Shown here one piece after another: positions 4,737 through 56,016 of a stretch of 64,000 bases of DNA. This DNA is from Sarcina sp. (lineage in GTDB: Bacteria > Bacillota > Clostridia > Clostridiales > Clostridiaceae): the NCBI GenBank assembly GCA_051650825.1, contig JBOFRC010000461.1:7817-71816 (forward strand), read 5' to 3'. Positions within the stretch are counted from its first letter, which is position 1. Each line of letters begins with the position of its first letter. Made by a program: the position numbers and the translations under genes. A model generated the notes under the pieces. It was not told where the DNA came from. It saw nothing but the letters and a program-made list of their open reading frames with translations, and searched no databases.

Positions 4737-5828
4737 ATGAAAAGATTAGGAATATCAGTATATCCAAACCATACATCTATAGAGGAGAATATTGAATATA
4801 TTGAGCTTGCAGCAAAATATGGTTTTTCAAGAATTTTTACATGCTTGTTATCAGCAGCAGATAAAGAGGTTGAAGAAATAGTTGCAGAGTTTAAAGGAAT
4901 GGTAGATGTAGCTAACAAACATGGAATGGAAGTAATAGCAGATTTAGACCCTACAGTATTTAATAAATTAGAAGCATCAATAACTGATTTGTCAGTATTT
5001 AAAGAAATGGGGCTATCTGGAATTAGACTTGATATGGGATTCAGTGGTAGTGAAGAGTCAATTATGTCATATAATAAGCATGGATTAAAAATTGAGCTAA
5101 ATGTGAGTAATGGTACTAAGTATGTAGATAATATACTTTCATACCAAGCTAATCTTTCTAATATATATGGATGTCATAATTTTTATCCACACATATACAC
5201 AGGATTATCATATGATCATTTTATAAAATGTAGTGAACAATTTAAGGCACTTGGAGTTAAGACAGCTGCATTTGTTAATTCTCCTACAGCAGAGTTTGGA
5301 CCTTGGCCAGTATCAGAAGGATTATGTACTTTAGAGGAACATAGAAATCTTCCAATAACTGTACAAGCTAAGCATTTATTTGCTACAGAAGCTATAGATG
5401 ATGTAATTATAGCAAATTCATTTGCTAGTGAAGAGGAATTAAAAGCTCTTAGTGAATTAAATAAAGAAATGTTAGAGTTTACAGTAGAACTTAATGAAGA
5501 AATTAGAGATATAGAAAAGACTATAGTTTTAGATGAGTTCCATTATAATAGAGGCGATAATTCTGAGTATATGGCTAGAAGTACGCAAAGTAGAGTTAAA
5601 TATAAGGGAACACCGTTCCCAGCATATAATACTCCTGATATAAAGAGAGGAGATATTTTAATAGATTCTGATCTTTATTCAAGATATGCAGGAGAACTTC
5701 AGGTTGCATTAAAAGATATGAAAAATTATGGTAAAACAAACGTTGTAGGGCATATAGTTGAAGAAGAAGTATTTTTATTAGATTATATAAAGCCTTGGAG
5801 TAAGTTTGGATTTAAGCTTAAAAAATAG
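4737..5828 (+). CDS. MupG/DUF871-family phospho-glycoside hydrolase
   Basis: LGISVYP, IFTCLL, GIRLDMGF, CHNFYPH and LEEHR motifs typical of DUF871. Confidence 0.88.
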   Translation: MKRLGISVYPNHTSIEENIEYIELAAKYGFSRIFTCLLSAADKEVEEIVAEFKGMVDVANKHGMEVIADLDPTVFNKLEASITDLSVFKEMGLSGIRLDMGFSGSEESIMSYNKHGLKIELNVSNGTKYVDNILSYQANLSNIYGCHNFYPHIYTGLSYDHFIKCSEQFKALGVKTAAFVNSPTAEFGPWPVSEGLCTLEEHRNLPITVQAKHLFATEAIDDVIIANSFASEEELKALSELNKEMLEFTVELNEEIRDIEKTIVLDEFHYNRGDNSEYMARSTQSRVKYKGTPFPAYNTPDIKRGDILIDSDLYSRYAGELQVALKDMKNYGKTNVVGHIVEEEVFLLDYIKPWSKFGFKLKK

Positions 5829-5840
5829 AGAGGTATTATA

Positions 5841-7178
5841 ATGAATAAAGGCATAAAGATAGTTACAATAGGAGGAGGATCTTCTTATACACCAGAGCTT
5901 GTAGAAGGGTTCATTAAAAGATATGATAAATTACCAATAAGAGAACTTTGGCTTGTGGATATAGAAGAAGGAAAAGAAAAGTTAGAAATCGTTGGTAGCT
6001 TGGCAAAAAGAATGATAGAAAAAGCTGGTGTTCCAATGGAAATTCATTTAACACTAGACAGAAGAGAAGCTTTAAAAGATGCGGATTTTGTAACAACTCA
6101 ATTAAGAGTTGGGCTTTTAGATGCTAGAATTAAAGATGAAAGTATTCCTCTAAAACATGGAATGATAGGTCAAGAAACAAACGGTGCAGGTGGAATGCTT
6201 AAAGCATTTAGAACTATTCCTGTTATTCTTGAGATAGATAAAGATATGTCAGAACTATGTCCTAATGCCTGGATGATTAATTTTACTAATCCAGCTGGAA
6301 TGGTTACAGAGGCTCTTGTTAGATATGGGAAAAATAAGAAGGTTATAGGTCTTTGTAATGTACCAATAGGTATGGAAAAGGCTGTTGCAAGTATTATGGA
6401 GGTAGATCATAGTAGAGTTACAGTTGATTTTGCAGGTCTTAATCACATGGTATATGGACTGAATATGTATGTTGATGGTAAAAAAGTAAATGATGAAGTT
6501 TTAGACGCGATAGCTACAGGAAAGCTGGGACAAATAGTTAAAAATGTAAAAGATTTTAATTGGAGTCCTGAGTTTATAAAAGCTTTAGGGGTTATGCCTT
6601 GTCCATACCATAAATATTACTATCAAATGGAAGATATGTTAAAAGATGAATTAGATGAATTTGCTAAAGGAAAGGCAAGAGGTGAATTTGTAAAAGAAGT
6701 AGAAAAAGAATTGTTTGAGCTATACAAGAATCCTAATTTAGATGTTAAGCCGCCTCAACTTGAGAAAAGAGGTGGAGCATATTATAGTGATGCTGCTTGT
6801 AGACTTATAACATCAATTTATAATGATACTAGAGATATTCAACCAGTAGATACTAGAAATAATGGGGCTATTCAAGGAATTGATAATGATTCTGTTGTTG
6901 AGATATCATGCTTAATAACTAAAGATGGACCAAAGCCTATAAATATTGGAGAGCTTCCAGTTTCTATTAATGGACTTATACAAGAGATTAAAACTTTTGA
7001 AAGGTTAACAATAGAGGCGGCGATAGAAGGCAATTATGGTAAGGCTTTACTTGCATTAACAAGTAATCCATTAACATTATCAGATAAAACTGCAAAAGTA
7101 GTTTTAGATGAACTTTTAGAAGCACATAAGCAGTATTTACCGACATTTACAAAATATTTTGAAATGAAAAATAAATAG
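5841..7178 (+). CDS. GH4 6-phospho-beta-glucosidase (CelF/LicH/ChbF type)
   Basis: TIGGGSSYTPEL, GQETNGAGG, NFTNP, GLCNVP and GLNHM motifs. Confidence 0.95.
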   Translation: MNKGIKIVTIGGGSSYTPELVEGFIKRYDKLPIRELWLVDIEEGKEKLEIVGSLAKRMIEKAGVPMEIHLTLDRREALKDADFVTTQLRVGLLDARIKDESIPLKHGMIGQETNGAGGMLKAFRTIPVILEIDKDMSELCPNAWMINFTNPAGMVTEALVRYGKNKKVIGLCNVPIGMEKAVASIMEVDHSRVTVDFAGLNHMVYGLNMYVDGKKVNDEVLDAIATGKLGQIVKNVKDFNWSPEFIKALGVMPCPYHKYYYQMEDMLKDELDEFAKGKARGEFVKEVEKELFELYKNPNLDVKPPQLEKRGGAYYSDAACRLITSIYNDTRDIQPVDTRNNGAIQGIDNDSVVEISCLITKDGPKPINIGELPVSINGLIQEIKTFERLTIEAAIEGNYGKALLALTSNPLTLSDKTAKVVLDELLEAHKQYLPTFTKYFEMKNK

Positions 7179-7187
7179 TAATTAATT

Positions 7188-7229
7188 ATATAGCTCATTA
7201 ATATTTTTTAATTAATGAGCTATATTTTT
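7188..7229 (+). terminator. Intrinsic terminator ending the PTS operon
   Basis: ATATAGCTCATTAAT/ATTAATGAGCTATAT stem plus T tract. Confidence 0.8.
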
Positions 7230-7349
7230 GTATTTTAATCTCTATTTTAGATTATTAGATAAATTTTTTTAATAATGAGTAACTAAGCAATATATTTTAC
7301 ATATTTTATTATTAGAGGTTTAGGTGAATGAAAAAATTTTTACAATAGT

Positions 7350-7934
7350 GTGGTGAGAATTTTGGAATTTAACGAAAATTCAGAAATTAATAGTTTGTTT
7401 GTAGGCATAATTCCTACATTTGAAAGTGAAAATTATATATTAAGAAAAGTTGTATTATCAGACTGGGAAGATTTGATAGAAATTTATCAAAATAGCTTTT
7501 TGCATGAATATGGAAATACTCCATATATATATACTGAAAAAATGGCAGTAAATCTAGTTACAGGGATAGAATACAATTATGCTATGGGAAAAGCTGCGGC
7601 TTGGAGTATAGAAGACAAAGCAACTAATGAATGTATAGGAATATTATCTTTAAATAATGTTTCTATAAGCGACAAAAAAACAGAAATTGGATATGGACTT
7701 AAAGAAATTCATATGAATAAGGGAATTATGAGTGAAATATTTCCTGTTTTTTTAGATAACATAATCTCTTATGGATTTTATAGAATAGAGGCTAATATAG
7801 ATACAAATAATGTAGCATCTATAAACTTATGTGAGAACAATGGTTTTTTACAAGAAGGTATTAGAAGAAAATATATATTTAACTTAGAGAAGCAAGTATT
7901 TTCAGATAGTTATATATATGCAAAGGTTCTTTAA
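7350..7934 (+). CDS. RimJ/RimL-family GNAT acetyltransferase
   Basis: EIGYGL..GIMSE and RIEANIDTNNVASINL..NGFLQEG motifs; start codon uncertain. Confidence 0.85.
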   Translation: MVRILEFNENSEINSLFVGIIPTFESENYILRKVVLSDWEDLIEIYQNSFLHEYGNTPYIYTEKMAVNLVTGIEYNYAMGKAAAWSIEDKATNECIGILSLNNVSISDKKTEIGYGLKEIHMNKGIMSEIFPVFLDNIISYGFYRIEANIDTNNVASINLCENNGFLQEGIRRKYIFNLEKQVFSDSYIYAKVL

Positions 7935-8014
7935 GAATAATCCCCAGATTTAACAAGTAAAGTAGTATATCTGGGGATTATATATCATTATTAAAAGAAA
8001 AATAGGGGGAAGCT

Positions 8015-9100
8015 GTGGATAAGTTTATATTACTAATTATGGTTTTATTTTTTATAATAGGTGGATTAGATTACATATTAGGTAATAAGTTTGGATTTGG
8101 TGAAAAGTTTAAAGAGGGTGTAGAGGCAATTGGAGTTTTAGTTCTTTCGATGACAGGAATATTTGCTATTTCACCTATTATTGCAAATGTAATTAATGCT
8201 GTATTTAAACCGATAGGAGAATTTTTTAATCTTGATATTTCTATATTTTCATCAATGTTTTTAGCTATAGATATGGGAGCTTTAGGAATTAGTGAAAGTC
8301 TTGCTATAAGCGAAGAAATGATGGTTATTTCAGGAATAGTAATAGCGTCTACATTAGGTGCTACTTTAAGCTTTTCAATACCGTTAGCATTTGGAATGAT
8401 AAACAAAAAATATAATAAAGACTTAGCAAAGGGAATGATTTATGGCGTTGCAACAATGCCAATAGCACCAATTATTGCAGGATTAATTTTAAAGATTAAT
8501 TTTAAATTATTATTAGTCAATTTAATTCCTTTGTTTATTATGACGATACTTTTAATAATAGGAATATTAAAGTTTGAAGTTTTAGTTGAAACTATTTTTG
8601 AGTTATTGTCAAAAGGTATCTTGGTTATAAGTTTAGGAGCTCTTATTTTACTTGGAATTAATTCTATATTAGGAATAGAATTAATAAAAGGAATGCTACC
8701 TATTGATGAAGCTCTAGGTGTAGCAGGAAGAATAGGAATATTTTTAGCAGGTGCATATCCATTCTTAGAATTCGTTACGAGATATTTTAGTAAGTGTTTT
8801 AGTAGATTATCAAATATTATAAAGGTAAAGGAAATTGCGATAATAAATTTGTTTGCAGGACTTGTATCTAATATAATAATTTTTAAAAACTTTGAAAAGT
8901 TAGGGCAAAGAGGTAGGGTTATTTGTAGTGCGTTTAGTGTTAGTGGAGCTTTTGTTTTAGGTGGTCAACTTGGTTTTGTATCTGCTAAGGTGCCAAATTT
9001 TATAAATGTGTATATAATATCTAAGTGTATTGCAGGAATAGCAGCGATAGTATTAAGCTTATATATTTTAAACAAAAAGGATAATAAAATAACAGTTTAG
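8015..9100 (+). CDS. eutH: EutH-family ethanolamine transporter-like membrane protein
   Basis: LAIDMGALG, SFSIPLAFG and AFVLGGQLGF motifs; multiple TM helices. Confidence 0.8.
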   Translation: MDKFILLIMVLFFIIGGLDYILGNKFGFGEKFKEGVEAIGVLVLSMTGIFAISPIIANVINAVFKPIGEFFNLDISIFSSMFLAIDMGALGISESLAISEEMMVISGIVIASTLGATLSFSIPLAFGMINKKYNKDLAKGMIYGVATMPIAPIIAGLILKINFKLLLVNLIPLFIMTILLIIGILKFEVLVETIFELLSKGILVISLGALILLGINSILGIELIKGMLPIDEALGVAGRIGIFLAGAYPFLEFVTRYFSKCFSRLSNIIKVKEIAIINLFAGLVSNIIIFKNFEKLGQRGRVICSAFSVSGAFVLGGQLGFVSAKVPNFINVYIISKCIAGIAAIVLSLYILNKKDNKITV

Positions 9101-9228: not shown

Positions 9229-10359
9229 TTATTTTTTGCCAAGATTATATAATTCCTGATAGGCAGCTAGAGTTTTTTGTGCTGTGTTCTCCCATGTGAA
9301 TAGATTAGCTCTTTCTAAAACTTTTTTTGTTAAAAGATCTAAAGTGTTTTTAGAGTTTAAGATTTGAATTAGCTTAGATTCAAACTCTAAATTGTCATTA
9401 GGATTAAATAGTAGTTCATCTATGCCAACAACCTCAGGAATAGATGTTGTTCTAGCAGATAATGCAGGAGTTCCACATGTCATTGCTTCAAGTGGTGGAA
9501 GTCCAAAGCCTTCATAAAATGATGGATATACAAGTAAACTACAAGCAGAGTATAGCGTTGGGAGATAATCTTCCTCTATAAAGCCAGTAAAAATGATTTT
9601 ATCTTTATGTTTCAATGTCTGACTAAAAGTTTCTAGTTTTTTTCCTTCTTCTCTAAGCCCACCTACAATTAGTAGTTTAGTAGGTGTAGTTAAGTTATCA
9701 CAAATTTTATTAAATGATTTTATTAAACCTAAAACATTTTTTCTAGTGCTAAAGCCACCTATATACATAATATAGTTGCAATCAAAATTGAATCTTGTTT
9801 GTACTAATTTTAAAGTTTCTTTTTTATCTTGGACTTTAAATGTTTCGTTTGCAGCAAGGGGTGTTACAAATATTCGATTGCTAGGAAAGCTTGGAAAAAA
9901 TTTGAGTATATCTAATTTTGAATATTCAGATACTGTAATAATGCCATCACAAGATTCAATTATTGTTGGTACTTTTTGCAAAAAGTTTTTAAGATAACTA
10001 GGACCTGTTGTTTCAGGTAATACATATGGTATTAAATCATGGATAGTAGCAATATTTAATGTATTTGGATTATTGGTGAGTCCAATTCCATTTTGAGGAA
10101 CATGGAAAATATCAATGTTATTTTTATTAGCGTAATAAGGCATATAGTGTTCTTCAAAAAACTTTTTATGTTTTTTAGATGACATTATTATTTTAGAGTT
10201 TTTTGCATTGTAATCTTTATAACTATCACCGCAGCAAAATAAATTATATTCATTTGTTGAGTCAGTTTTAAGGAGTTTATTTAATAAGTTATGAGTATAT
10301 GTTCCAATTCCTGTACCACGATAAAGATTTGCCCCTCTTGAGTCAATAAGTATTTTCAT
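9229..10359 (-). CDS. GT4 glycosyltransferase, spore-coat CotSA-like
   Basis: YPSFYEGFGLPPLEAMTCG; start placed at MKILID (ATG 10359). Confidence 0.92.
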   Translation of the reverse strand: MKILIDSRGANLYRGTGIGTYTHNLLNKLLKTDSTNEYNLFCCGDSYKDYNAKNSKIIMSSKKHKKFFEEHYMPYYANKNNIDIFHVPQNGIGLTNNPNTLNIATIHDLIPYVLPETTGPSYLKNFLQKVPTIIESCDGIITVSEYSKLDILKFFPSFPSNRIFVTPLAANETFKVQDKKETLKLVQTRFNFDCNYIMYIGGFSTRKNVLGLIKSFNKICDNLTTPTKLLIVGGLREEGKKLETFSQTLKHKDKIIFTGFIEEDYLPTLYSACSLLVYPSFYEGFGLPPLEAMTCGTPALSARTTSIPEVVGIDELLFNPNDNLEFESKLIQILNSKNTLDLLTKKVLERANLFTWENTAQKTLAAYQELYNLGKK

Positions 10360-10485: not shown

Positions 10486-11493
10486 GTGGATTTAGATAAA
10501 ATTAAAAAAATCGTAGAAGAAATGTATGAAATAAAGATAGAAAAGCTTACTAAAAAGAAGAATGTATATAGAGTGGAAAGTCAAAATAAAATCTATTGTC
10601 TAAAAGTTATAAAATATGGTTTAGGACATTTTAAATTTATAGTTTCAGCTATAAGACATTTGCAAAAGAATGGTTTTGTAGATACTCCTAGGTTATTTAA
10701 TACACTAGATGGGGAAATTTATATACAATTGGAAAATTCATATGCATATCTAACTGAATGGCTAGATGTTAGAGAAGCTGATTATACAAATATGCTAGAT
10801 GTAAGTAAAACAGCTATATTAGTTTCAAAATTACATAGTTGCAGTAAGGGTTTTACTTTTGATATTGAGTGTAATCCAAGGATATATTGGGGACAGTGGA
10901 TAAACAATTTTGAGGCTAGAATTGAGCAGATGGAAGATTTTAAATTTAGAATGGAAAGAAAGATGTATAAGTCAGAATTTGATGAAATTTACAATACGTT
11001 TGTTGATCAAGAAATTATAAGAGGTAAGGATGCTATAAAAATTTTAGAAAATAGCAATTATTCTGAGTACATGAACAAACAAAGTAATACTCTTACTTTT
11101 TGCCATCATGATTTAGCTCATCATAATATACTCGTTGATAAAGAGTACAATTTGAAAATAATTGATTTTGATTATTGTATATTAGATTCATATTTGCATG
11201 ATTTAGCTAGTTTGTGTATGAGAGTAATGAGAAATGGAAGTTGGAGTATAGAGCTTTTTGATATGATAGTTGAAAGTTATTTTGATGGAAAAAGAGGTTT
11301 AACAAAGGATGAAGTAAAGTTTATAATTGGTTTTTTAAAGTTTCCACAAGATTTTTGGCAAGTAGGTTTGCAGTATTATTGGGAGCAACTTCCTTGGAGT
11401 GCTGAAAGATTTTTAGGGAGATTAAATAATTATTTACTTGATATAGATTGTAGAACTAAGTTCATAGAAAAACTATATGAAAGGAGTTTATAA
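10486..11493 (+). CDS. cotS: CotS-family spore coat protein (bacterial spore kinase fold)
   Basis: FCHHDLAHHN and IIDFDYC motifs. Confidence 0.9.
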   Translation: MDLDKIKKIVEEMYEIKIEKLTKKKNVYRVESQNKIYCLKVIKYGLGHFKFIVSAIRHLQKNGFVDTPRLFNTLDGEIYIQLENSYAYLTEWLDVREADYTNMLDVSKTAILVSKLHSCSKGFTFDIECNPRIYWGQWINNFEARIEQMEDFKFRMERKMYKSEFDEIYNTFVDQEIIRGKDAIKILENSNYSEYMNKQSNTLTFCHHDLAHHNILVDKEYNLKIIDFDYCILDSYLHDLASLCMRVMRNGSWSIELFDMIVESYFDGKRGLTKDEVKFIIGFLKFPQDFWQVGLQYYWEQLPWSAERFLGRLNNYLLDIDCRTKFIEKLYERSL

Positions 11494-16753: not shown

Positions 16754-16860
16754 AATAAATCCTTTCGCTATAGCTATTAATTTATTATATTATTAAAAGT
16801 TAAATTTGGTTAATAAATAAAGTTTTATTAACATATAAATATATAGGGGGTGAATAATTT

Positions 16861-17865
16861 ATGATGAGGGAATTTGAAATAGAAAGACAATTTGACATAA
16901 AAATTGAGCAGATAAAGCCAAGCAAGGGCGTATATTACCTTAAAACTAATAAAGGTGATAGATGTTTAAAACGGATTAATTATGGAACACAAAAATTATT
17001 ATTTGTCTATGGAGCAAAGGAGCATTTAATTAAAAATGGATTTGAAAACATAGATAGATATTATTTAAATATAGATGGAGAACCTTTTGCACTTGTAAAT
17101 GAAGATTTATATACATTATCTGAGTGGATTGATGGCAAAGAGTGTGACTTCCATAATATTGATGATGTAAAACTTGCTGCTGAAAATTTAGCTAAGTTAC
17201 ATGATGCAAGTAAGGGATATGATCCACCAGAAAATTCAAAGCTTAAAACTGATATAGGTAGATGGCCAGCACTTATGGATAAAAGAATTAAGGCTTTAGC
17301 AAAAATGAGAGACATGGCTAGAAAGAAAAATGTAAAGCAAAACTTTGATTTATCTTATATTAAAAGTGTGGATTTTTATAGAGATTTAGCAATAAAGGCT
17401 TTAACTATTCTAAAAAAATCACAATATAATGCAATTTGCGAACTTAGTGAAGAACAAAAAGTATTTTGCCATCATGATTTTACGTATCACAATATAATAA
17501 TTACTGAGAATGGTGAGCTAAACGTTTTAGATTTTGATTATTGCAAAAGAGAGATAAGGTCGTTTGATATAGCTAATTTCATGATTAAAGTGTTAAAGAA
17601 AGTAGATTGGAATATGGAATATGCTAAAGCAATATTAGAAAGCTATAGTTCAGTATCTCCTATAGAGTCAAGAGAGTATAATGTTATATTAGCATTTTTA
17701 CTTTTCCCACAACGTTATTGGCGCCTTGCTAATAGATATTACTATAATGAAGTTACATGGGGAGCAAATACATTTTCAAAGAAAATACAAAATATAATAA
17801 ATGAAAGAGAAAATTATATAAGTTTTATAGACGCCTTTAAAAAGGAATATGATTTAGGTGAATAA
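16861..17865 (+). CDS. cotS: CotS-family spore coat protein
   Basis: FCHHDFTYHN and VLDFDYC motifs. Confidence 0.92.
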   Translation: MMREFEIERQFDIKIEQIKPSKGVYYLKTNKGDRCLKRINYGTQKLLFVYGAKEHLIKNGFENIDRYYLNIDGEPFALVNEDLYTLSEWIDGKECDFHNIDDVKLAAENLAKLHDASKGYDPPENSKLKTDIGRWPALMDKRIKALAKMRDMARKKNVKQNFDLSYIKSVDFYRDLAIKALTILKKSQYNAICELSEEQKVFCHHDFTYHNIIITENGELNVLDFDYCKREIRSFDIANFMIKVLKKVDWNMEYAKAILESYSSVSPIESREYNVILAFLLFPQRYWRLANRYYYNEVTWGANTFSKKIQNIINERENYISFIDAFKKEYDLGE

Positions 17866-17935
17866 ATATAAAACTTAATTAAATTAGTTTATTTAAATAT
17901 ATTCTATGCTAGATTGCATTGTTGATTTAGCACTT

Positions 17936-17969
17936 AAAAAAGTATGGATTTAACATTCCATACTTTTTA
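17936..17969 (+). terminator. Intrinsic terminator after cotS
   Basis: AAAAAAGTATGGA/TCCATACTTTTT. Confidence 0.7.
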
Positions 17970-18088
17970 TTAATTTGCGTGCAGTTTCAATTCCTAGTTC
18001 AAAGTTATTTTTCATTTTTAGAAATTCTATTAATAAGTTTAATGTTATTAGAGGTATAAATAAAGCAATTAAAGATAATTATTTTTTT

Positions 18089-18115
18089 AACAAAAAAAGA
18101 GTTTTTGCATATTAT
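18089..18115 (+). promoter_or_regulatory. Putative SigK-type promoter of yabG
   Basis: AACA-N15-CATATTAT; yabG is SigK-dependent in B. subtilis. Confidence 0.5.
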
Positions 18116-18146
18116 GATAAATATAACATAAAGGAGCGCTATTCTT

Positions 18147-19031
18147 ATGAACATAGGGGATCAAGTTGTACGAAAATCATATGGTAAAGATGTTATTTTT
18201 AAAGTAATAGATATTAAAGAAGATGGGGAGAAGAAATCTTATGTATTAAAAGGAGCAAACATAAGGATATTAGCAGACGCAACTGAAGAAGATTTAGAAA
18301 TTGTTGATGATGATTTTGAAGCTGATACAGATAAATTATTTAATACTAGGGTAAATAAAGTAATTAAAGAAGTTGTTGATAAAAGAAGGACAACTAATCT
18401 CATGCCCAGTACTAAAAGAACTAAAAGCAAATCAGAAAAAATAGTTAAAGATAATGCACTTGTATTTAGTAGACCAGGGAGGATACTCCATATAGATGGA
18501 GATAATGAATATTTAGAAAATTGCCTAAAAGTATATAAACAACTTAAACTTGAAGCGCAAGGAATTGCAATAAGTGAAAAAGATCAGCCAAGTAAAATTT
18601 TAGAAGTAGTTAAAACTTATAAACCAGATATAGTTGTTTTGACAGGTCATGATGGTTTGTTTAAAAATAAGGCAGATTATTTAGATGAGACTAGTTATAG
18701 AAATTCAAAGTATTTTATTGAGGCAGTAAAAATTTTAAGAGAGTATAATTCAAGCTATGATGAATTAGTTATTTTTGCAGGAGCTTGCCAGTCATTTTAT
18801 GAGGGGATTTTAGATGCAGGAGCTAATTTTGCAAGTTCGCCAAGTAGGGTACTTATACACTGCTTAGATCCTGTTTTTGTTTGTGAAAAAATAGCCTATA
18901 CAAGTATTGATAAGGTCGTCGCTATAACGGAAGTAATAGAAAATACTATTACTGGAATAAGTGGTGTAGGAGGACTACAAACAAGAGGTAAATATAGAGA
19001 AGGTTATCCAAAATCAAAATATATATTGTGA
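18147..19031 (+). CDS. yabG: Sporulation-specific protease YabG
   Basis: VVRKSYGKD, LHIDGD, LTGHD and FAGACQS motifs. Confidence 0.95.
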   Translation: MNIGDQVVRKSYGKDVIFKVIDIKEDGEKKSYVLKGANIRILADATEEDLEIVDDDFEADTDKLFNTRVNKVIKEVVDKRRTTNLMPSTKRTKSKSEKIVKDNALVFSRPGRILHIDGDNEYLENCLKVYKQLKLEAQGIAISEKDQPSKILEVVKTYKPDIVVLTGHDGLFKNKADYLDETSYRNSKYFIEAVKILREYNSSYDELVIFAGACQSFYEGILDAGANFASSPSRVLIHCLDPVFVCEKIAYTSIDKVVAITEVIENTITGISGVGGLQTRGKYREGYPKSKYIL

Positions 19032-19141
19032 AATGATTATTTTTATGAATAAAAAAAAGAAATATGTCAATAATAAATTAGAATCTCTAAAAAATATATA
19101 TTGACAAAATTATTGTTTTGATGATAAAATATTTTGTTTAT

Positions 19142-19170
19142 TTGACATCCAAAGTTTTACAGTATATACT
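19142..19170 (+). promoter_or_regulatory. SigA promoter of veg
   Basis: TTGACA-N17-TATACT. Confidence 0.8.
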
Positions 19171-19193
19171 AAAATAAGAAAGAGGGTGTTAGG

Positions 19194-19430
19194 ATGAAAA
19201 AAAATAGAACTGTATCAGCTATAAAAAAAGCCCTAGAAGCGCATGTAGGGGATAGAGTGATGTTAAAAGCTAACGGTGGCAGAAAAAGAGTTTTAGTGAA
19301 TGAAGGTATACTAGAGAGTGTTTATTCAAGTATTTTTGTAGTTAGACTACAAAAAGACACCCAAAGGACTGTGACATATAGTTATTCAGACGTACTTACT
19401 AATACAGTACAGTTAGATTTTGAACGTTAA
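19194..19430 (+). CDS. veg: Veg family protein
   Basis: LKANGGRK and YSYSDVLT motifs; position after yabG. Confidence 0.93.
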   Translation: MKKNRTVSAIKKALEAHVGDRVMLKANGGRKRVLVNEGILESVYSSIFVVRLQKDTQRTVTYSYSDVLTNTVQLDFER

Positions 19431-19439
19431 TAGGATTGT

Positions 19440-19466
19440 AAAAAGGCTCCAGCGAGGAGTTTTTTT
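19440..19466 (+). terminator. Intrinsic terminator of veg
   Basis: AAAAAGGCTCC-AGCGA-GGAGTTTTTTT. Confidence 0.75.
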
Positions 19467-19471
19467 ATTGT

Positions 19472-19559
19472 AAAAAAAAGAAAGATGGTGGGTTTCCATC
19501 TTTCAACTATGGTATAAAAGGGTATTGAGAATTTATGAGAGGTTATATGGTCAATAACC
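19472..19559 (-). ncRNA. Candidate ~90-nt small RNA
   Basis: Minus-strand TTGACA(19594-89)-N17-TATTAT(19571-66) promoter; terminator GAAAGATGG/CCATCTTTC plus T8; no minus-strand ORF. Confidence 0.6.
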
Positions 19560-19755
19560 ACTTTTATAATACGATATTTTCCGACAAGTGTCAACTATGA
19601 AATTCAAAAAAAACGACAAAATTTGATAAAGATGATTAACTGCATTGGTATGAATTAAAAAAAAGCTATATTCTTTAAAAAAAATTTCAAAAAAGTGGAA
19701 TTAAAATAACTTTCTATATATATATTATAGTAGGTAGAATATAGGAGGGTACAAT

Positions 19756-21318
19756 ATGGCTAATTTAGATTTAATTAAAGAAAATATAGAAGTCCAAATA
19801 CAAATTGGAGTAAATTCTAATGATGATGTTCTAAGAGATGAATATCTTATATCAGATACACTTCCAGATGTTAAAGAAATTCTTTCTGTTGATGTGGAAG
19901 AAAAGGTAACTAAGGCTGAGGTGTTAGACGGAAAGGTTGCAGTTGAAGCAGATGTAAGATATACAGTTGTTTATTTGTCAGATGAAGAAGAGGGTAGTGG
20001 TGTTAACAATGTTGTTTATAAAAGCAAATTATCAAACTTCATAGACATATCAAATGCAGAGCAAGGAATGCTTTGTAATGTGGAGTGTGAACTAGAACAT
20101 ATTAATCCAACACTTGTAAATGAAAGGAAAATAAATGTAGAAGCCTATTTTAGATTAAAGGCAAAAGTTTATAAACATGAAGAGTTTGAATTTGTTGAAA
20201 GTGTAGAGAATAGACAGGATATACAAGTAATTAAAAAAGTTGAAAATATAGATAAAACTATATATTCAGGGGTAAAAGCAGTTACAGCAAATCAAGAATT
20301 AAGAATTAATATGGATAAAGCTCAAATTGAAAAAGTTGTTAAATTTGATTCTCTAATTCATAAAAAAGAAGTTAAATTATATGATAATAAAATACAATAT
20401 TCATGCTATGCAAAAGTAAATATTGTATATAGAACAGAAGATTCAAGAGAATTATCAATTGTAGAAGATGATGTATTTATATCATCAGAAGAAGAAATTG
20501 TAGGAGTAAGTCCTAATTATGAGTGTGATTATGATTTTAGAGTTATAAATGCAGATTATGCTATAGGTCAAGATGATTTAGGTGAAAATAGAATTATCAA
20601 CTTAGGATTCAATTTAGAAGTTGATACTAAAGTTTATAAATCAGATGTAGTAGAAATAATAGAAGACGCATATTCTCCTAATAATGAAATAAGAATTATC
20701 AAAGATAGTATAGAACTTAATATAAGACATGCTGTAGCTAATTCAGAAGCAATTATAAAAGAGAACTTTAGTCTTGATAATGAGGAAGCAGTTCAAATTA
20801 TTAGTGTAAGAGGAGTTATTGATTCTGTAAAACATGAAGCTATAGGTGAGCTATTAAATATAGAAGGAAACTTAAAAGTTAAGTGTATTTATAAAAATGC
20901 AAACTCAGATAAAATTTATAATAGTAAAGAATTTGATATACCATTTACAACTAATATAGAAATTCCTAAAATGACAGATAATATGGATATTGATATAAAG
21001 TCATCACTAGAATGCATGCAGGCATCAATAGAAGCTGGAACTATAGCAATTAAAGGTATAGCATTATTTACAGCAAAGACTATGTATAAAGAGAAAAAAG
21101 GATATATTACAGCTATAGAAGATGATGATGATGCAGAAGTTCCAGTGAAAAAAGCATCTGTAATTATTTATGTAGTACAAGCAGGAGATACTATATGGAA
21201 ATTAGCTAAAAAATATAAAACTACTATGCAAAATATAGCAGATATAAATAATATAGATTTAAATGATACTTTAGAAATTGGGGATAAATTAATAATACCA
21301 GGAAGAGCGGTTATCTAA
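19756..21318 (+). CDS. sipL: SipL/SPOCS (DUF3794) coat morphogenetic protein with C-terminal LysM
   Basis: Repeated DUF3794-like blocks; LysM YVVQAGDTIWKLAKKY. Confidence 0.88.
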   Translation: MANLDLIKENIEVQIQIGVNSNDDVLRDEYLISDTLPDVKEILSVDVEEKVTKAEVLDGKVAVEADVRYTVVYLSDEEEGSGVNNVVYKSKLSNFIDISNAEQGMLCNVECELEHINPTLVNERKINVEAYFRLKAKVYKHEEFEFVESVENRQDIQVIKKVENIDKTIYSGVKAVTANQELRINMDKAQIEKVVKFDSLIHKKEVKLYDNKIQYSCYAKVNIVYRTEDSRELSIVEDDVFISSEEEIVGVSPNYECDYDFRVINADYAIGQDDLGENRIINLGFNLEVDTKVYKSDVVEIIEDAYSPNNEIRIIKDSIELNIRHAVANSEAIIKENFSLDNEEAVQIISVRGVIDSVKHEAIGELLNIEGNLKVKCIYKNANSDKIYNSKEFDIPFTTNIEIPKMTDNMDIDIKSSLECMQASIEAGTIAIKGIALFTAKTMYKEKKGYITAIEDDDDAEVPVKKASVIIYVVQAGDTIWKLAKKYKTTMQNIADINNIDLNDTLEIGDKLIIPGRAVI

Positions 21319-21424
21319 ATTAAGTTTAATTTTAAATGATAATAACTTAGATAATAAATTTTTTGTAGGATAAATATTTATATCGATTTAAAATAGTATT
21401 ATGGTAAAGAAATTTGAAAATTTG

Positions 21425-21483
21425 AAGGATTGTATGATAATGAGGAAAAATTCTCAGTATTATACAGTCCTTTTCTTTTTTTT
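21425..21483 (+). terminator. Long-stem terminator after sipL
   Basis: About 19-bp stem AAGGATTGTATGATA..TGAG/CTCA..TATTATACAGTCCTT plus T tract. Confidence 0.7.
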
Positions 21484-21484
21484 A

Positions 21485-21514
21485 GTATAAAAGATTTAGA
21501 ATTAGGCAAAAATA
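21485..21514 (+). promoter_or_regulatory. Putative SigF/SigG-type promoter of cphBA
   Basis: GTATA-N15-GGCAAAAATA. Confidence 0.65.
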
Positions 21515-21554
21515 ATAAATGCATGTTTTAAAAGTGATTTAGGAGGCAGGCTAG

Positions 21555-22355
21555 ATGACAAAAGTTAGATTCATAATCATAGGTGGAGCTGAAAAGAAAA
21601 AAGGTAAAACTAAAGTTTTAGAGTATGTAGCTAAATGCTTAAGAGCAGATGACATGCTTTTAATAGCGACTATAGCTAGTCAAGAACAAGAAGAAATGAT
21701 AAAAACTTATAAAACTGTATTTAATAATTTAGGTCTTAGGAATATTAAAGAATTGTTTGTTAATAATAGAGAAGAGTGCTTAGATGAAACAAGAATAAAG
21801 TTAATTAAAGATGCTAAAATGATATTTTTTACAGGAGGAGACCAGTTAAGAATAACAAGTATATTAGGAGGAACACCTCTTTATGATGAACTAAAAAAAC
21901 ACTTTAATAATGGATGTATTTATGTTGGAACATCAGCAGGAGCATCGGTTGTGAGTGAAACTATGGTTGTTCAAGGAGAAGATGCAAGTTCGCCTAGTAA
22001 ATGCTATTTAAACATGTGTAAAGGACTTGGTTTATTAAAAAATATAATTATAGATCAACATTTTGCGCAAAGAGGAAGAATTGGAAGACTTTTAGCTATG
22101 GTAGCACAGAATCCAGAAAATATAGGTATAGGCATTGATGAAGATACTGCGATTATCATAGATGATAAAGATAAATTAGAAGTTATAGGTTCAGGAGCTA
22201 TTTATATAGTCGATGGAAGAAATATGACTTATAGCAATGTTTCTGAGCAAAAATATGAGGAGTTACTTAGTATGTATAATGTAACTTTACATGTGCTAAC
22301 ACCAGGAAAAAAATATAATTTGTTAGATAAGGAGCCCTTTGAGGAGGATGTTTAA
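21555..22355 (+). CDS. cphB: Cyanophycinase
   Basis: IIGGAE, FFTGGDQ, GTSAGAS (catalytic Ser) and DQHFAQRGR motifs. Confidence 0.95.
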   Translation: MTKVRFIIIGGAEKKKGKTKVLEYVAKCLRADDMLLIATIASQEQEEMIKTYKTVFNNLGLRNIKELFVNNREECLDETRIKLIKDAKMIFFTGGDQLRITSILGGTPLYDELKKHFNNGCIYVGTSAGASVVSETMVVQGEDASSPSKCYLNMCKGLGLLKNIIIDQHFAQRGRIGRLLAMVAQNPENIGIGIDEDTAIIIDDKDKLEVIGSGAIYIVDGRNMTYSNVSEQKYEELLSMYNVTLHVLTPGKKYNLLDKEPFEEDV

Positions 22356-47471: not shown

Positions 47472-47547
47472 GCTGATATGGCTCAATTGGCAGAGCAGCT
47501 GATTTGTAATCAGCAGGTTATCGGTTCAAGTCCGATTATCAGCTCCA
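47472..47547 (+). tRNA. tRNA-Thr(TGT)
   Basis: Cloverleaf, anticodon loop TTTGTAA, encoded CCA. Confidence 0.97.
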
Positions 47548-47552
47548 AATAG

Positions 47553-47638
47553 GGTGGGGTTCCCGAGTGGCCAAAGGGAACAGACTGTAAATCTGTCGTC
47601 GTATGACTTCGAAGGTTCGAATCCTTCTCCCACCACCA
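47553..47638 (+). tRNA. tRNA-Tyr(GTA)
   Basis: Anticodon loop CTGTAAA, long variable arm, CCA. Confidence 0.97.
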
Positions 47639-47646
47639 TTTTGTAA

Positions 47647-47722
47647 GGTCGCATAGCTCAGCTGGGAGAGCACCTGCCTTACAAGCAGGGGGTCACAGGT
47701 TCGAGCCCTGTTGCGACCACCA
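47647..47722 (+). tRNA. tRNA-Val(TAC)
   Basis: Anticodon loop CTTACAA, CCA. Confidence 0.97.
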
Positions 47723-47739
47723 TTTAAAAAATAAATATT

Positions 47740-47815
47740 GCTGATATGGCTCAATTGGCAGAGCAGCTGATTTGTAATCAGCAGGTTATCGGTTCAAGTC
47801 CGATTATCAGCTCCA
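47740..47815 (+). tRNA. tRNA-Thr(TGT), copy 2
   Basis: Identical to 47472-47547. Confidence 0.97.
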
Positions 47816-47820
47816 AATGA

Positions 47821-47906
47821 GGTGGGGTTCCCGAGTGGCCAAAGGGAACAGACTGTAAATCTGTCGTCGTATGACTTCGAAGGTTCGAATCCTTCTCCCA
47901 CCACCA
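47821..47906 (+). tRNA. tRNA-Tyr(GTA), copy 2
   Basis: Identical to 47553-47638. Confidence 0.97.
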
Positions 47907-47934
47907 TTTTTAAATTTAATATAATAAGCATTAT

Positions 47935-48010
47935 GCTGATATGGCTCAATTGGCAGAGCAGCTGATTTGTAATCAGCAGGTTATCGGTTCAAGTCCGATT
48001 ATCAGCTCCA
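47935..48010 (+). tRNA. tRNA-Thr(TGT), copy 3
   Basis: Identical to 47472-47547. Confidence 0.97.
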
Positions 48011-48013
48011 TGA

Positions 48014-48099
48014 GGTGGGGTTCCCGAGTGGCCAAAGGGAACAGACTGTAAATCTGTCGTCGTATGACTTCGAAGGTTCGAATCCTTCTCCCACCACCA
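48014..48099 (+). tRNA. tRNA-Tyr(GTA), copy 3
   Basis: Identical to 47553-47638. Confidence 0.97.
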
Positions 48100-48180: not shown

Positions 48181-48288
48181 CTCTTATCAAGAGAGGTGGA
48201 GGGAGAGGGCCCGATGAAACCCGGCAACCAGTTTTTGAAGAAAAACTAAGGTGCCAATTCCTGCAAGTTTTTACTTGCGAGATAAGAG
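48181..48288 (+). promoter_or_regulatory. SAM-I (S-box) riboswitch aptamer
   Basis: CTCTTATCAAGAG..GGAGGGA..GGCCCGATGAAACCCGGCAACC..GGTGCCAATTCCTGCA..GATAAGAG upstream of metK. Confidence 0.97.
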
Positions 48289-54766: not shown

Positions 54767-54774
54767 TAGTATTT

Positions 54775-54976
54775 GGTGCTAGGTCTGTGATTGAAAGTCG
54801 ATGCCAGTTGCAGGCAAAACGATCCACGTAAGCTAAACAAAGTTTTAGTGAGCATGGTGCAGCTTAGAAGTAAGTCCTGCCGAGAAAATCGAGAGGGTTA
54901 GTAGTGAGAGGTTGAATCCGGGTAGCGAAAGCTCCAGCAGGCGAGTGTGGGGTCAAAGATCAGGTCAGCTAGCATC
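54775..54976 (+). ncRNA. raiA-motif RNA
   Basis: GAAAGTCGATGCCAGTTGCAGGCAAAACGATCCACGTAAG..AGCAGGCGAGTGTGGGGTCAAAGA; 5'/3' ends pair; canonical comF-to-hpf position. Confidence 0.9.
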
Positions 54977-54982
54977 TTTTAA

Positions 54983-55244: not shown

Positions 55245-55775
55245 ATGAAGGTAAAAATTCATGCTAGAAATATCAAATTAACAGAAGCTTTAAAAGAGAC
55301 TGTAGAGAAAAAAGTTTTAAAACTTGAAAAATATTTTATAGAGGATGTAGAAGCAAAGGCAACTTTAAGTGTTCAGAAAAATCGACATATCGTTGAAGTT
55401 CTAATTCCGTTTAATGGAATTTGTATAAGAGCAGAAGAATCAACAGATGATATGTATAAATCAATAGATTTAGTAGAAGAAAAATTAGAAAGACAAATAG
55501 TTAAATATAAAACTAGATTAAAAAGAGATGAATATAGTTCAGTAAGATATCCAGCAGTAGATCATGAGCCAGAAGTTCAAGAAGAAGAAAGCAAAATTGT
55601 AAAGGTTAAAAGATTTGACCTTAAACCAATGGATGCAGAAGAAGCTGTGTTACAAATGGAACTAATAGGACATAATTTCTTTGTATACAAAGACGGCGAA
55701 ACAAATGAAACTAGAGTAGTATACAAAAGAAAAGATGGTCATTACGGACTTATTGAGCCAGAAGATGAAAATTAA
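55245..55775 (+). CDS. hpf: Ribosome hibernation promoting factor, long HPF
   Basis: DMYKSIDLVEEKLERQ and KPMDAEEAVLQM motifs. Confidence 0.96.
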   Translation: MKVKIHARNIKLTEALKETVEKKVLKLEKYFIEDVEAKATLSVQKNRHIVEVLIPFNGICIRAEESTDDMYKSIDLVEEKLERQIVKYKTRLKRDEYSSVRYPAVDHEPEVQEEESKIVKVKRFDLKPMDAEEAVLQMELIGHNFFVYKDGETNETRVVYKRKDGHYGLIEPEDEN

Positions 55776-55820: not shown

Positions 55821-55891
55821 CTATTTAATATTTATTAATTTTAGCTTGTAAGATTTTTATTAAAGTGGTATATTGTAGAAAAATAGACAAG

Positions 55892-55953
55892 TTCGTATAT
55901 GCTCAAAATATGGTTTGAGTGTTTCTACAGGGAGCCAAAATCCTAACTACGAA
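55892..55953 (+). promoter_or_regulatory. Purine riboswitch, guanine-specific (C74)
   Basis: TTCGTATAT-GCTCAAA-ATATGG-TTTGAGT-GTTTCTAC..GCCAAAA..AAC-TACGAA upstream of xpt. Confidence 0.92.
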
Positions 55954-56016
55954 TATATAGGTTTTACTATATGTTCCTTTTAGAACTCGGATTTGATAAA
56001 TATCAGGAGGCAACAT

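Follow-up and report, generated by a model that had tools for sequence, protein, structure and literature searches.

Locus and predicted transcription unit

Within a 64,000-nucleotide (nt) stretch of AT-rich clostridial DNA from Sarcina sp. (contig JBOFRC010000461.1, positions 7,817 to 71,816; hereafter the window), a predicted small RNA (sRNA) gene lies on the minus strand between veg and sipL, at a site with no prior annotation. An earlier note, made from the letters of the DNA, had described a complete minus-strand unit hidden between these two genes and running towards the veg terminator. Every element listed there is present where it was placed (Table 1), and the two terminators stand back to back. 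The block occurs once in the window. Comparative evidence indicates that it is an independent non-coding RNA gene of about 80-88 nt, real although its transcript is a predicted one, and that it represents a nearly invariant family spanning Clostridium sensu stricto and almost always sited between veg and sipL.

Table 1. Features of the sRNA gene and its neighbours, in window coordinates
Feature	Position	Strand	Basis or remark
-35 hexamer TTGACA	19589..19594	-	consensus scan; TTGACA, TTGACT or TTGGCT in 80/81 unique promoters, at a fixed distance to +1
-10 hexamer TATTAT	19566..19571	-	consensus scan; TAWYAT in nearly all orthologs, spacer always 17 bp
T-tract-rich, UP-element-like stretch upstream of -35	19595..19625	-	UP function inferred
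Spo0A-box-like TGTCGTT, about -60 from the start site	19612..19618	-	read from sequence
Spo0A-box-like TGTCGGA in the promoter spacer	19580..19586	-	related loci have TGTCGAA, TGTCGTA or inverted CGACA
TATCGTA overlapping the first two -10 bases	19570..19576	-	TGTCGTA or TGACGTA in most species
5' end (+1 G at 19559) and hairpin GGUUAU-UGACCAU-AUAACC (nt 1-19)	19541..19559	-	onset of identity, minimum-free-energy fold, covariation
Single-stranded core UCUCAUAAAUUCUCAAUACCCUUUU (nt 20-44), presumed functional or seed module	19516..19540	-	unpaired in minimum-free-energy fold; common to host and phage
3' part of the single strand, AUACCAUAGUU (nt 45-55)	19505..19515	-	(nearly) invariant in hosts; replaced in most phage homologs
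Terminator hairpin, 9-bp stem GAAAGAUGG/CCAUCUUUC with 7-nt loop AAACCCA	19480..19504	-	consensus scan, covariation
Terminator U8 tail	19472..19479	-	7-8 U in most orthologs; UUCUU in L043, L045 and L072
veg terminator, GGCTCCAGCGAGGAGTTTTTTT	19444-19470	+	read from sequence; convergent, abuts the sRNA terminator, not part of the RNA
CotS-family spore-coat kinase gene	16861-17865	+	neighbour gene
yabG	18147-19031	+	neighbour gene
veg	19194-19430	+	neighbour gene
SipL/LysM gene (sipL)	19756-21318	+	neighbour gene

The promoter claimed in the earlier note, TTGACA and TATTAT separated by 17 nt, is exactly as described, and its layout is kept in 80 of 81 orthologous promoters. When 80 unique upstream regions are aligned on the -35 hexamer, the consensus consists of T-tracts, tTg-TTGACA, a 17-bp spacer, TAtTAT, 6-7 nt and GG, where the T-runs precede the -35 hexamer by about 6-19 and 22-27 nt. 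The spacer sequence drifts across orthologs while the hexamer positions stay fixed. The predicted +1 G lies 6 nt downstream of the -10 hexamer (6-7 nt in orthologs), and cross-species identity begins at exactly this base. The proposed 9-bp terminator with its U8 tail is likewise in place, and its stem covaries. A consensus scan of 1.2 kb gave eight promoter-like sites against 6.0 +/- 2.3 expected and one terminator-like site against 0.2 expected. Such a scan is weak evidence by itself, because promoter-like hexamers are common in AT-rich DNA, and chance could not be excluded from the window alone; the comparative data described below remove this doubt.

In the minimum-free-energy (MFE) fold (-16.4 kcal/mol; z = -3.35 against shuffles), the RNA starts with a 5' hairpin of 6 bp, continues as a single strand of 36 nt and closes with the terminator hairpin. 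The unpaired core contains the C/U-rich motifs CCUCUC and ACCCUUUU, and the terminator loop usually contains ACCC. Of the two alternative 5' hairpins that had been proposed, GGUUAU/AUAACC is found in the MFE fold and covaries, whereas the second (nt 1-9 with nt 32-39) gained no support: G8A breaks a G-C pair in 4 of 20 variants with no compensatory change, and the helix is unable to form in phage homologs lacking the 5' hairpin. A function as a sponge for CsrA was considered and rejected, since the GGA in the terminator loop is not conserved.

Conservation across Clostridium

An unbiased set of loci was retrieved by the Veg protein alone and comprises nine genome loci and eight contigs from four further Veg clusters. 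The block is present in all 15 loci with the order yabG-veg-sipL, as well as in L017, a short contig that ends inside it. Across these 16 loci it is 88/88 or 87/88 identical, the sole substitution being one loop base (L016, L017), while identity is 68-97% for the Veg protein, 74-94% for the veg coding sequence and 66-97% for the 35 nt of promoter. Carriers include Clostridium mediterraneense, C. fallax, C. baratii and a C. intestinale-type Veg cluster. The predicted +1 GG is precisely where identity sets in, and the U-tract is where it stops; the flanks are unalignable between distant species, and the flank holding the veg terminator is completely different from species to species. In L009, an unclassified Clostridia metagenome-assembled genome with a Veg of 30% identity, the block is absent. 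Two C. intestinale-type contigs (L010 and L011) carry tandem veg paralogs at 917-1156 and 1501-1737, with the sRNA gene after the second.

A pattern scan of metagenome contigs with the core yielded 105 loci, including about 100 chromosomal copies with unrelated flanks. The pattern left nt 1-28 and 52-80 free and fixed nt 29-51, where invariance is partly imposed and uninformative. Nearly all of the chromosomal copies lie between veg and sipL and are convergent with veg, and their neighbours share 59-75% (Veg) and 32-46% (SipL) amino-acid identity with those of the window; over all chromosomal loci the corresponding ranges are 59-97% and 32-88%. Maintenance of an identical RNA while neighbouring proteins drop to 32-70% identity points to very strong selection. 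The metagenome loci fall into 21 sequence variants, with 58 loci identical to the window. Host variation is found mostly in the terminator loop (AAACCCA, AUACCCG, AACCCA, AACGUA and others, usually retaining ACCC). In the 5' hairpin, the variants A5 to G and A17 to G are wobble-compatible, giving G-U and U-G pairs, and the terminator stem shows one compensatory change from G-C to A-U (L033, L061).

Three contigs carry the gene away from veg, at two distinct sites: that of L033/L061, where genes for a helix-turn-helix regulator and an adenine-deaminase-like protein adjoin it, and that of L073. Promoter, RNA and terminator are laid out there as they are next to veg. These off-site copies favour an autonomous unit over an accessory of veg or sipL. 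Together with the coincidence of the conservation borders with the predicted +1 and terminator and the positional retention of the promoter hexamers, they agree with the self-contained transcription unit put forward in the earlier note.

Two lineages depart from the usual arrangement in other respects. In one from fermentation metagenomes (L043, L045, L072), the U-run gives way to CUUCUUACC, and GGUUGUUAACC is the sequence of the 5' hairpin; weaker termination or a longer RNA is possible there. In another (L062, L074, L085, L103, L106, L117, L120), yabG is inverted relative to veg, with the veg-sRNA-sipL order intact.

In an alignment of 35 host and phage sequences, fitted to a host-derived covariance model and leaning towards that model, paired cells amount to 93.3% against 39-49% with slid partners, and double-change cells number 142 against 41.6 +/- 5.4 in shuffles. 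Compensatory changes occur at all nine terminator pairs and at five of the six pairs of the 5' hairpin, and the contrast of these covarying helices with the invariant single strand is clear. The check for covariation among relatives that had been suggested thus comes out in favour of both hairpins, across host and phage copies alike, and both helices appear to be under selection at the RNA level.

No conserved open reading frame (ORF) was found at the sRNA, which contains only a 3-codon TTG ORF and an AUG in the terminator stem, and the block is most simply regarded as non-coding. That the block is untranscribed and conserved as DNA, for example as a site bound by a protein, or that it encodes a short peptide, would be a very improbable alternative. 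This alternative could draw on the absence of stranded read evidence for an RNA; however, a promoter conserved in position and a terminator bound the block, and both of its helices covary across the family. The frame of the sole AUG, moreover, is shifted by loop indels among orthologs.

Spo0A-like motifs in the promoter

The consensus of the 0A box, known from Bacillus subtilis and solventogenic clostridia, is TGNCGAA. Perfect matches on either strand occur in 38 of the 81 unique promoters, at a density of 0.48 per 110 nt versus 0.017 in the surrounding 0.84 Mb, which corresponds to a 28-fold enrichment. In 57 of the 81, TG(T/A)CG stands directly 5' of the -10 hexamer, and extra TGTCG or CGACA motifs, whose location varies by lineage, are found within the spacer or at 50-100 nt upstream. 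The TGTCG motif was also considered as an extended -10 and rejected in this role, because its TG lies three bases from the hexamer instead of one.

Since the near-consensus -35 and -10 hexamers need no activator and are overlapped by the boxes, repression by phosphorylated Spo0A (Spo0A~P) is the natural reading, and the promoter is probably repressed by Spo0A. Motifs of this kind suggest that the RNA is probably made during growth and silenced by Spo0A~P as sporulation sets in. They would tie the RNA to the master switch of sporulation, which in several species governs toxin and solvent production as well.

Homologs in phages

A BLAST search of the 88 nt against phage and plasmid records returned partial matches that cover the core only and gave the first phage leads: phiCp-B, a phage of C. 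perfringens, and a prophage that C. butyricum CBM588 carries on its 794-kb replicon. In two pattern scans, 7 and 37 viral contigs proved to contain the core, and a covariance model built from host sequences gave full-length matches in about 45 phage-type loci. Phage homologs of a genus-wide clostridial sRNA are a new observation of this analysis. In these copies the invariant single strand reads UCUCAUAAAUUCUCAAUACCC(U)UUU. It is preceded by the same 5' hairpin (5 contigs), a variant hairpin, or a tRNA or tRNA-like minihelix, and it is followed by a canonical terminator of its own or by a hairpin and then a tRNA, while AUACCAUAGUU, the 3' third of the host single strand, is mostly lost. The core is identical in all host loci and is the only segment common to all host and phage forms. 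The C/U-rich tracts, to which the earlier note had assigned importance, thus gain weight: the single strand appears to be the most strongly selected part of the RNA, because its core is what the phage homologs share.

Several phage copies carry further peculiarities. One contig (L137) has two copies about 1.2 kb apart, at 9332-9409 and 10563-10637 (-), the latter one base off the core and detected by the model, not by the pattern. Unusual tRNA genes flank the phage copies (L021, 7103-7200 (-); L018, 1559-1647 (+); L020, L022, L088; L096, 537-627). ARAGORN called a suppressor-like tRNA with anticodon UUA, which reads the stop codon UAA, in L021, and long-arm tRNAs with an unassignable two-base anticodon in phiCp-B-type phages. 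Minihelices of 40-50 nt that resemble the acceptor and T-arm of a tRNA, located upstream of phage copies, were not called by the program.

The genomic position of the phage element is constant. A regulator of the phrog_36 family is encoded 30-660 nt upstream in 34 of 48 phage-type loci, and a terminase gene lies 80-3200 nt downstream in 24 loci, terS in all but one of them. The phrog_36 proteins are 35-100% identical to each other and show weak similarity to sigma-70 region 4. Promoters upstream of the phage copies contain direct repeats and an extended -10 with no -35 hexamer, which indicates an activator-dependent late promoter. In L024, a DUF4365 gene and a 391-amino-acid ORF lie between the sRNA homolog and terS (5730-7465); they may represent cargo of an accessory or defence-related kind where the late operon starts.

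This arrangement also lends itself to a different explanation, in which the core is a binding site for a protein or the transcription machinery, the phage element is a late-operon leader or attenuator deciding on read-through into terS, and the host RNA is a decoy or sponge; candidates for the binding factor would be the phrog_36 regulator and host factors of elongation or termination. Such a role is conceivable, though the less probable option. Flanked by the late regulator and terS, the element closes with a canonical terminator, the distance from the core to the terS start is only 81 nt in L143, with no space for a further promoter, and the phage promoters appear activator-dependent. In addition, all host nucleotides are conserved, stems included, which suits a protein-RNA interface better than a seed. 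However, the core is predicted to be unstructured and C/U-rich, resembling known anti-Shine-Dalgarno seeds, and several phage copies add CCCC or CCCCC motifs (L019, L035) typical of pairing sRNAs. The phage regulators diverge down to 35% mutual identity against an invariant core, which argues against co-evolving partners, and they resemble the DNA-binding region 4 of sigma factors. The host copy, moreover, has nothing to read into except antisense veg.

One contig raises the question of a role in integration. In L063 (2217 nt), the late regulator, leader and variant 5' hairpin of a phage run into the terminator and veg flank of the host. The switch takes place within the 30 nt of core that both have in common; L134 is the matching free phage and L085 the matching uninterrupted host form. 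A 182-amino-acid integrase-family gene also lies 400 nt downstream of the element in phiCp-B. These features could mean that the sRNA gene is a bacterial attachment site (attB) and that the phage copies are the cores of phage attachment sites (attP), not RNA genes. Such an account is, however, decidedly unlikely: the junction is the only one seen among about 100 host loci, with no reciprocal one seen, and may be a k-mer or assembly chimera across the 30-nt repeat, whereas the element is internal, between the late regulator and terS, in the prophage of the CBM588 replicon and in most viral contigs. Retention of the hairpin-core-terminator structure through compensatory changes would be unneeded by an attachment core. 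The C. butyricum copy, moreover, resides in a prophage on another replicon. These points argue that the phage copies are independent RNA genes, with occasional recombination with the host gene possible.

Relation to described RNAs

Covariance-model searches against Rfam 15 covered the whole window at gathering thresholds and the locus and four phage loci at E-value thresholds; at the sRNA locus they gave no match apart from sRNA71 (RF03534). This match scores 23.1 bits (E = 4.4), where the gathering threshold is 50, and derives from the terminator alone, and membership was rejected; the resemblance to this Staphylococcus RNA lies in length and in a terminal hairpin with a U-tail. The view of the earlier note that no known family is involved is consistent with these results. 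Sub-sequences of host and phage forms did not occur in the full text of the searchable papers, and the sRNA sequence was absent from the searched supplement files of the C. acetobutylicum stress sRNome paper. The candidate sr8384 of that species was discarded, as it lies between CAC2383 and CAC2384 and has no homologs outside the species. A strand-specific study of C. perfringens lists 93 intergenic transcripts by their flanking locus tags (PMC4877802, Table S6); no match to this list was made, the CPE tags of veg and sipL not having been established, and the sRNA may be present unnoticed in an existing prediction list. Overall, the searches suggest a new, previously undescribed family with host and phage members.

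The closest parallels in architecture are RsaE and RoxS (RF01820) of Bacillales, which are also about 90-110 nt long, have a sigma-A promoter and an intrinsic terminator, and are conserved across an order or genus. They too expose unpaired C-rich motifs for G-rich Shine-Dalgarno sequences. The RsaE motif is ACCCCUUUGUUU, where the core of the present RNA reads AUACCCUUUUAUAC. A permissive Rfam scan of positions 17000-22000 gave no match to RF01820 even at E <= 10, and the host RNA has no CCCC motif (CCUCUC and ACCC in the single strand, ACCC in the loop), whereas CCCC is repeated in RsaE/RoxS. The genomic context also differs, and control is exerted by Rex or ResD/SrrA in Bacillales, in contrast to the Spo0A-like motifs found here in Clostridium.

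Conceptually, the closest precedent is provided by SpoY, SpoX and related RNAs of Clostridioides difficile (Fuchs et al. 2023, PMC10267692), which link Spo0A and sRNAs in a spore former. They belong to Peptostreptococcaceae, their targets are experimentally known, and the direction of the link is opposite, since in the present case Spo0A would act on the sRNA, as suggested by its promoter motifs. Text searches disclosed no sequence relation between SpoY or SpoX and the sRNA.

Prophage-encoded sRNAs that act on host regulons include DicF and the enterobacterial anti-sRNAs AgvB and AsxR, and phage lambda produces a 6S RNA from PR' that ends at tR'. The phage copies described here recall the PR'-tR' transcript in starting a late operon behind a late regulator and ending at a terminator, and they recall the mimics and anti-sRNAs in sharing the sequence of a host riboregulator. 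However, all of these come from Gram-negative hosts and are not known to share sequence with the present RNA, and none is known to be a near-exact copy of a genus-wide chromosomal sRNA.

Proposed mode of action

An unpaired C/U-rich core combined with an ACCC loop is, by analogy, a signature of Firmicute sRNAs that occlude G-rich ribosome-binding sites. In the proposed mechanism, the strong sigma-A promoter with its UP-like T-tracts would drive an independent RNA of about 80-88 nt, whose core UCUCAUAAAUUCUCAAUACCCUUUU, possibly with help from the loop motif ACCC, would block the translation of target mRNAs by pairing at their G-rich Shine-Dalgarno and start-codon regions. The RNA would be made in growing cells until Spo0A~P shuts it off when sporulation begins. 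During infection, temperate Clostridium phages would make a mimic of the host RNA from homologs at the head of the late operon, from which a tRNA-like element, where present, would be cut off. The presence and position of the phage copies are observed; mimicry is most plausibly their purpose. The preferred reading, comprising gene status and family and given a probability of roughly 0.55, is therefore that of a trans-acting, anti-Shine-Dalgarno sRNA of the vegetative phase that is repressed by Spo0A and imitated by phages. The RNA is probably an important regulator.

Several points weigh against this reading. Control by Spo0A is supported by motif matches only. Invariance at nt 29-51 is partly imposed by the search in the metagenome set, the Veg-retrieved set being unbiased. 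Letter-perfect stems and 36 unpaired nt exceed what simple seed pairing needs, and a protein or other partner may be involved; for this reason, a role in binding a protein or polymerase is kept as the main rival. Furthermore, no target was identified among the genes scored in the window, and the CotS-family gene, which lies three genes upstream, reaches z = -2.2 across 30 orthologs, a value that loses significance once the four genes tested are taken into account; its register is not conserved.

For sipL, a 12-bp match in the Shine-Dalgarno region was noticed by eye; pairing of its ribosome-binding site with the sRNA is no better than with shuffled sRNAs (z = +0.3), and sipL was rejected as a target. 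The hpf and spoIIR genes gave the top crude duplex scores in the window, hpf being best at its start region, where the score is probably due to chance; in view of the loose method and the unconserved register, these two and the CotS-family gene (16861) are treated as leads only. No extended antisense site to the sRNA was found within the window. A role of Veg as RNA-binding partner gained nothing from the Protein Data Bank, where the only relative of Veg is an uncharacterised protein. Upstream of the CotS-family gene (window 16820-16860 and orthologs), a strongly conserved CATATAAATATA precedes a GGGGG Shine-Dalgarno sequence and the start ATGATGAGRGA; the CATATAAATATA motif looks like a -10 element of the sigma-K or sigma-E type (CATA-N3-TA), and complementarity of the start region to the sRNA is modest (z = -2.2).

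Transcript data

Public transcript data add to the reservations. The block is present in many isolate transcriptomes and metatranscriptomes (Logan contigs, strandless), including an early low-depth run (X25) in which an isolated 160-nt contig covers the locus apart from veg. High depths are confounded: a 695-fold RNA-seq contig is merged with the 3' half of the very highly expressed veg, and several species are pooled on the identical block in fish-gut metatranscriptomes. An initial reading of these depths as high expression was consequently withdrawn.

Raw reads of three 2026 runs from one species (X68-X70) were mapped on locus L098; the libraries are unstranded, contain poly(A)-tailed fragments and are unsuited to RNAs below 100 nt. 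The depth falls stepwise from about 2500 per orientation over veg to about 170 over the sRNA gene (8191-8277), some 7% of the veg level, and to about 110 beyond. In these unstranded, apparently poly(A)-biased libraries of one species, which lose short RNAs, neither a peak nor fragment ends were seen at the predicted sRNA borders. The pattern fits read-through from veg and neither demonstrates nor excludes an 88-nt RNA. Fragment ends were found at 7992, 8125/8126 and 8323. The last was discarded as an upstream start site, as there is no promoter and the end falls immediately before an A7 run on the plus strand. The first two concern veg, whose mRNA shows a sharp fragment end one base before the stop codon (7992) and a second about 130 nt downstream, past the obvious terminator; veg fragments often bear non-templated poly(A), and read-through runs on across the sRNA gene.

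Since this read-through crosses the locus and fades inside the sRNA gene, a purely local role deserves mention, in which convergent transcription and the terminator would stop or process veg read-through before sipL, or in which the RNA would be antisense to a 3' extension of veg. The almost invariant, convergent synteny with veg would suit this idea. However, an insulator needs no sequence conservation, yet 88/88 nt are kept while the veg 3' region varies freely; copies occur away from veg (L061, L073) and in phages, and the distance between the veg stop codon and the sRNA ranges from about 40 to 250 nt. A role restricted to cis is accordingly considered unlikely.

Biological significance

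If the trans-acting, phage-imitated sRNA is taken as the basis, a bolder proposal can be made, which is offered as speculation that may well prove wrong: a genus-wide, letter-perfect riboregulator serves as a mark of vegetative growth silenced by Spo0A, and its core has been captured by a large and diverse group of temperate phages for the heads of their late operons. If true, a lytic phage would imitate or compete with a core host signal, for instance by holding the growth state and blocking sporulation during virion production, and might also use the core for recombination with the host gene. Independently of this proposal, the presence of the core immediately before the packaging genes of many temperate phages offers an experimental handle on how phages sense or manipulate the physiology of spore formers. 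Toxin producers of major importance, commensals of the gut and industrial producers of solvents are all found in Clostridium sensu stricto, and very few of its sRNAs have a known role. The family has been missed in every genome annotation of the genus because it is absent from Rfam.

Other features of the window

The window contains additional RNA elements. Seven tRNA genes in near-identical repeated units are clustered at 47472-48096, with an S-adenosylmethionine (SAM) riboswitch next to them at 48181-48288. A raiA-motif RNA (199.6 bits) at 54774-54977 lies directly upstream of the hibernation factor gene hpf/yfiA (55245-55772), and a purine riboswitch follows farther along at 55873-55969.

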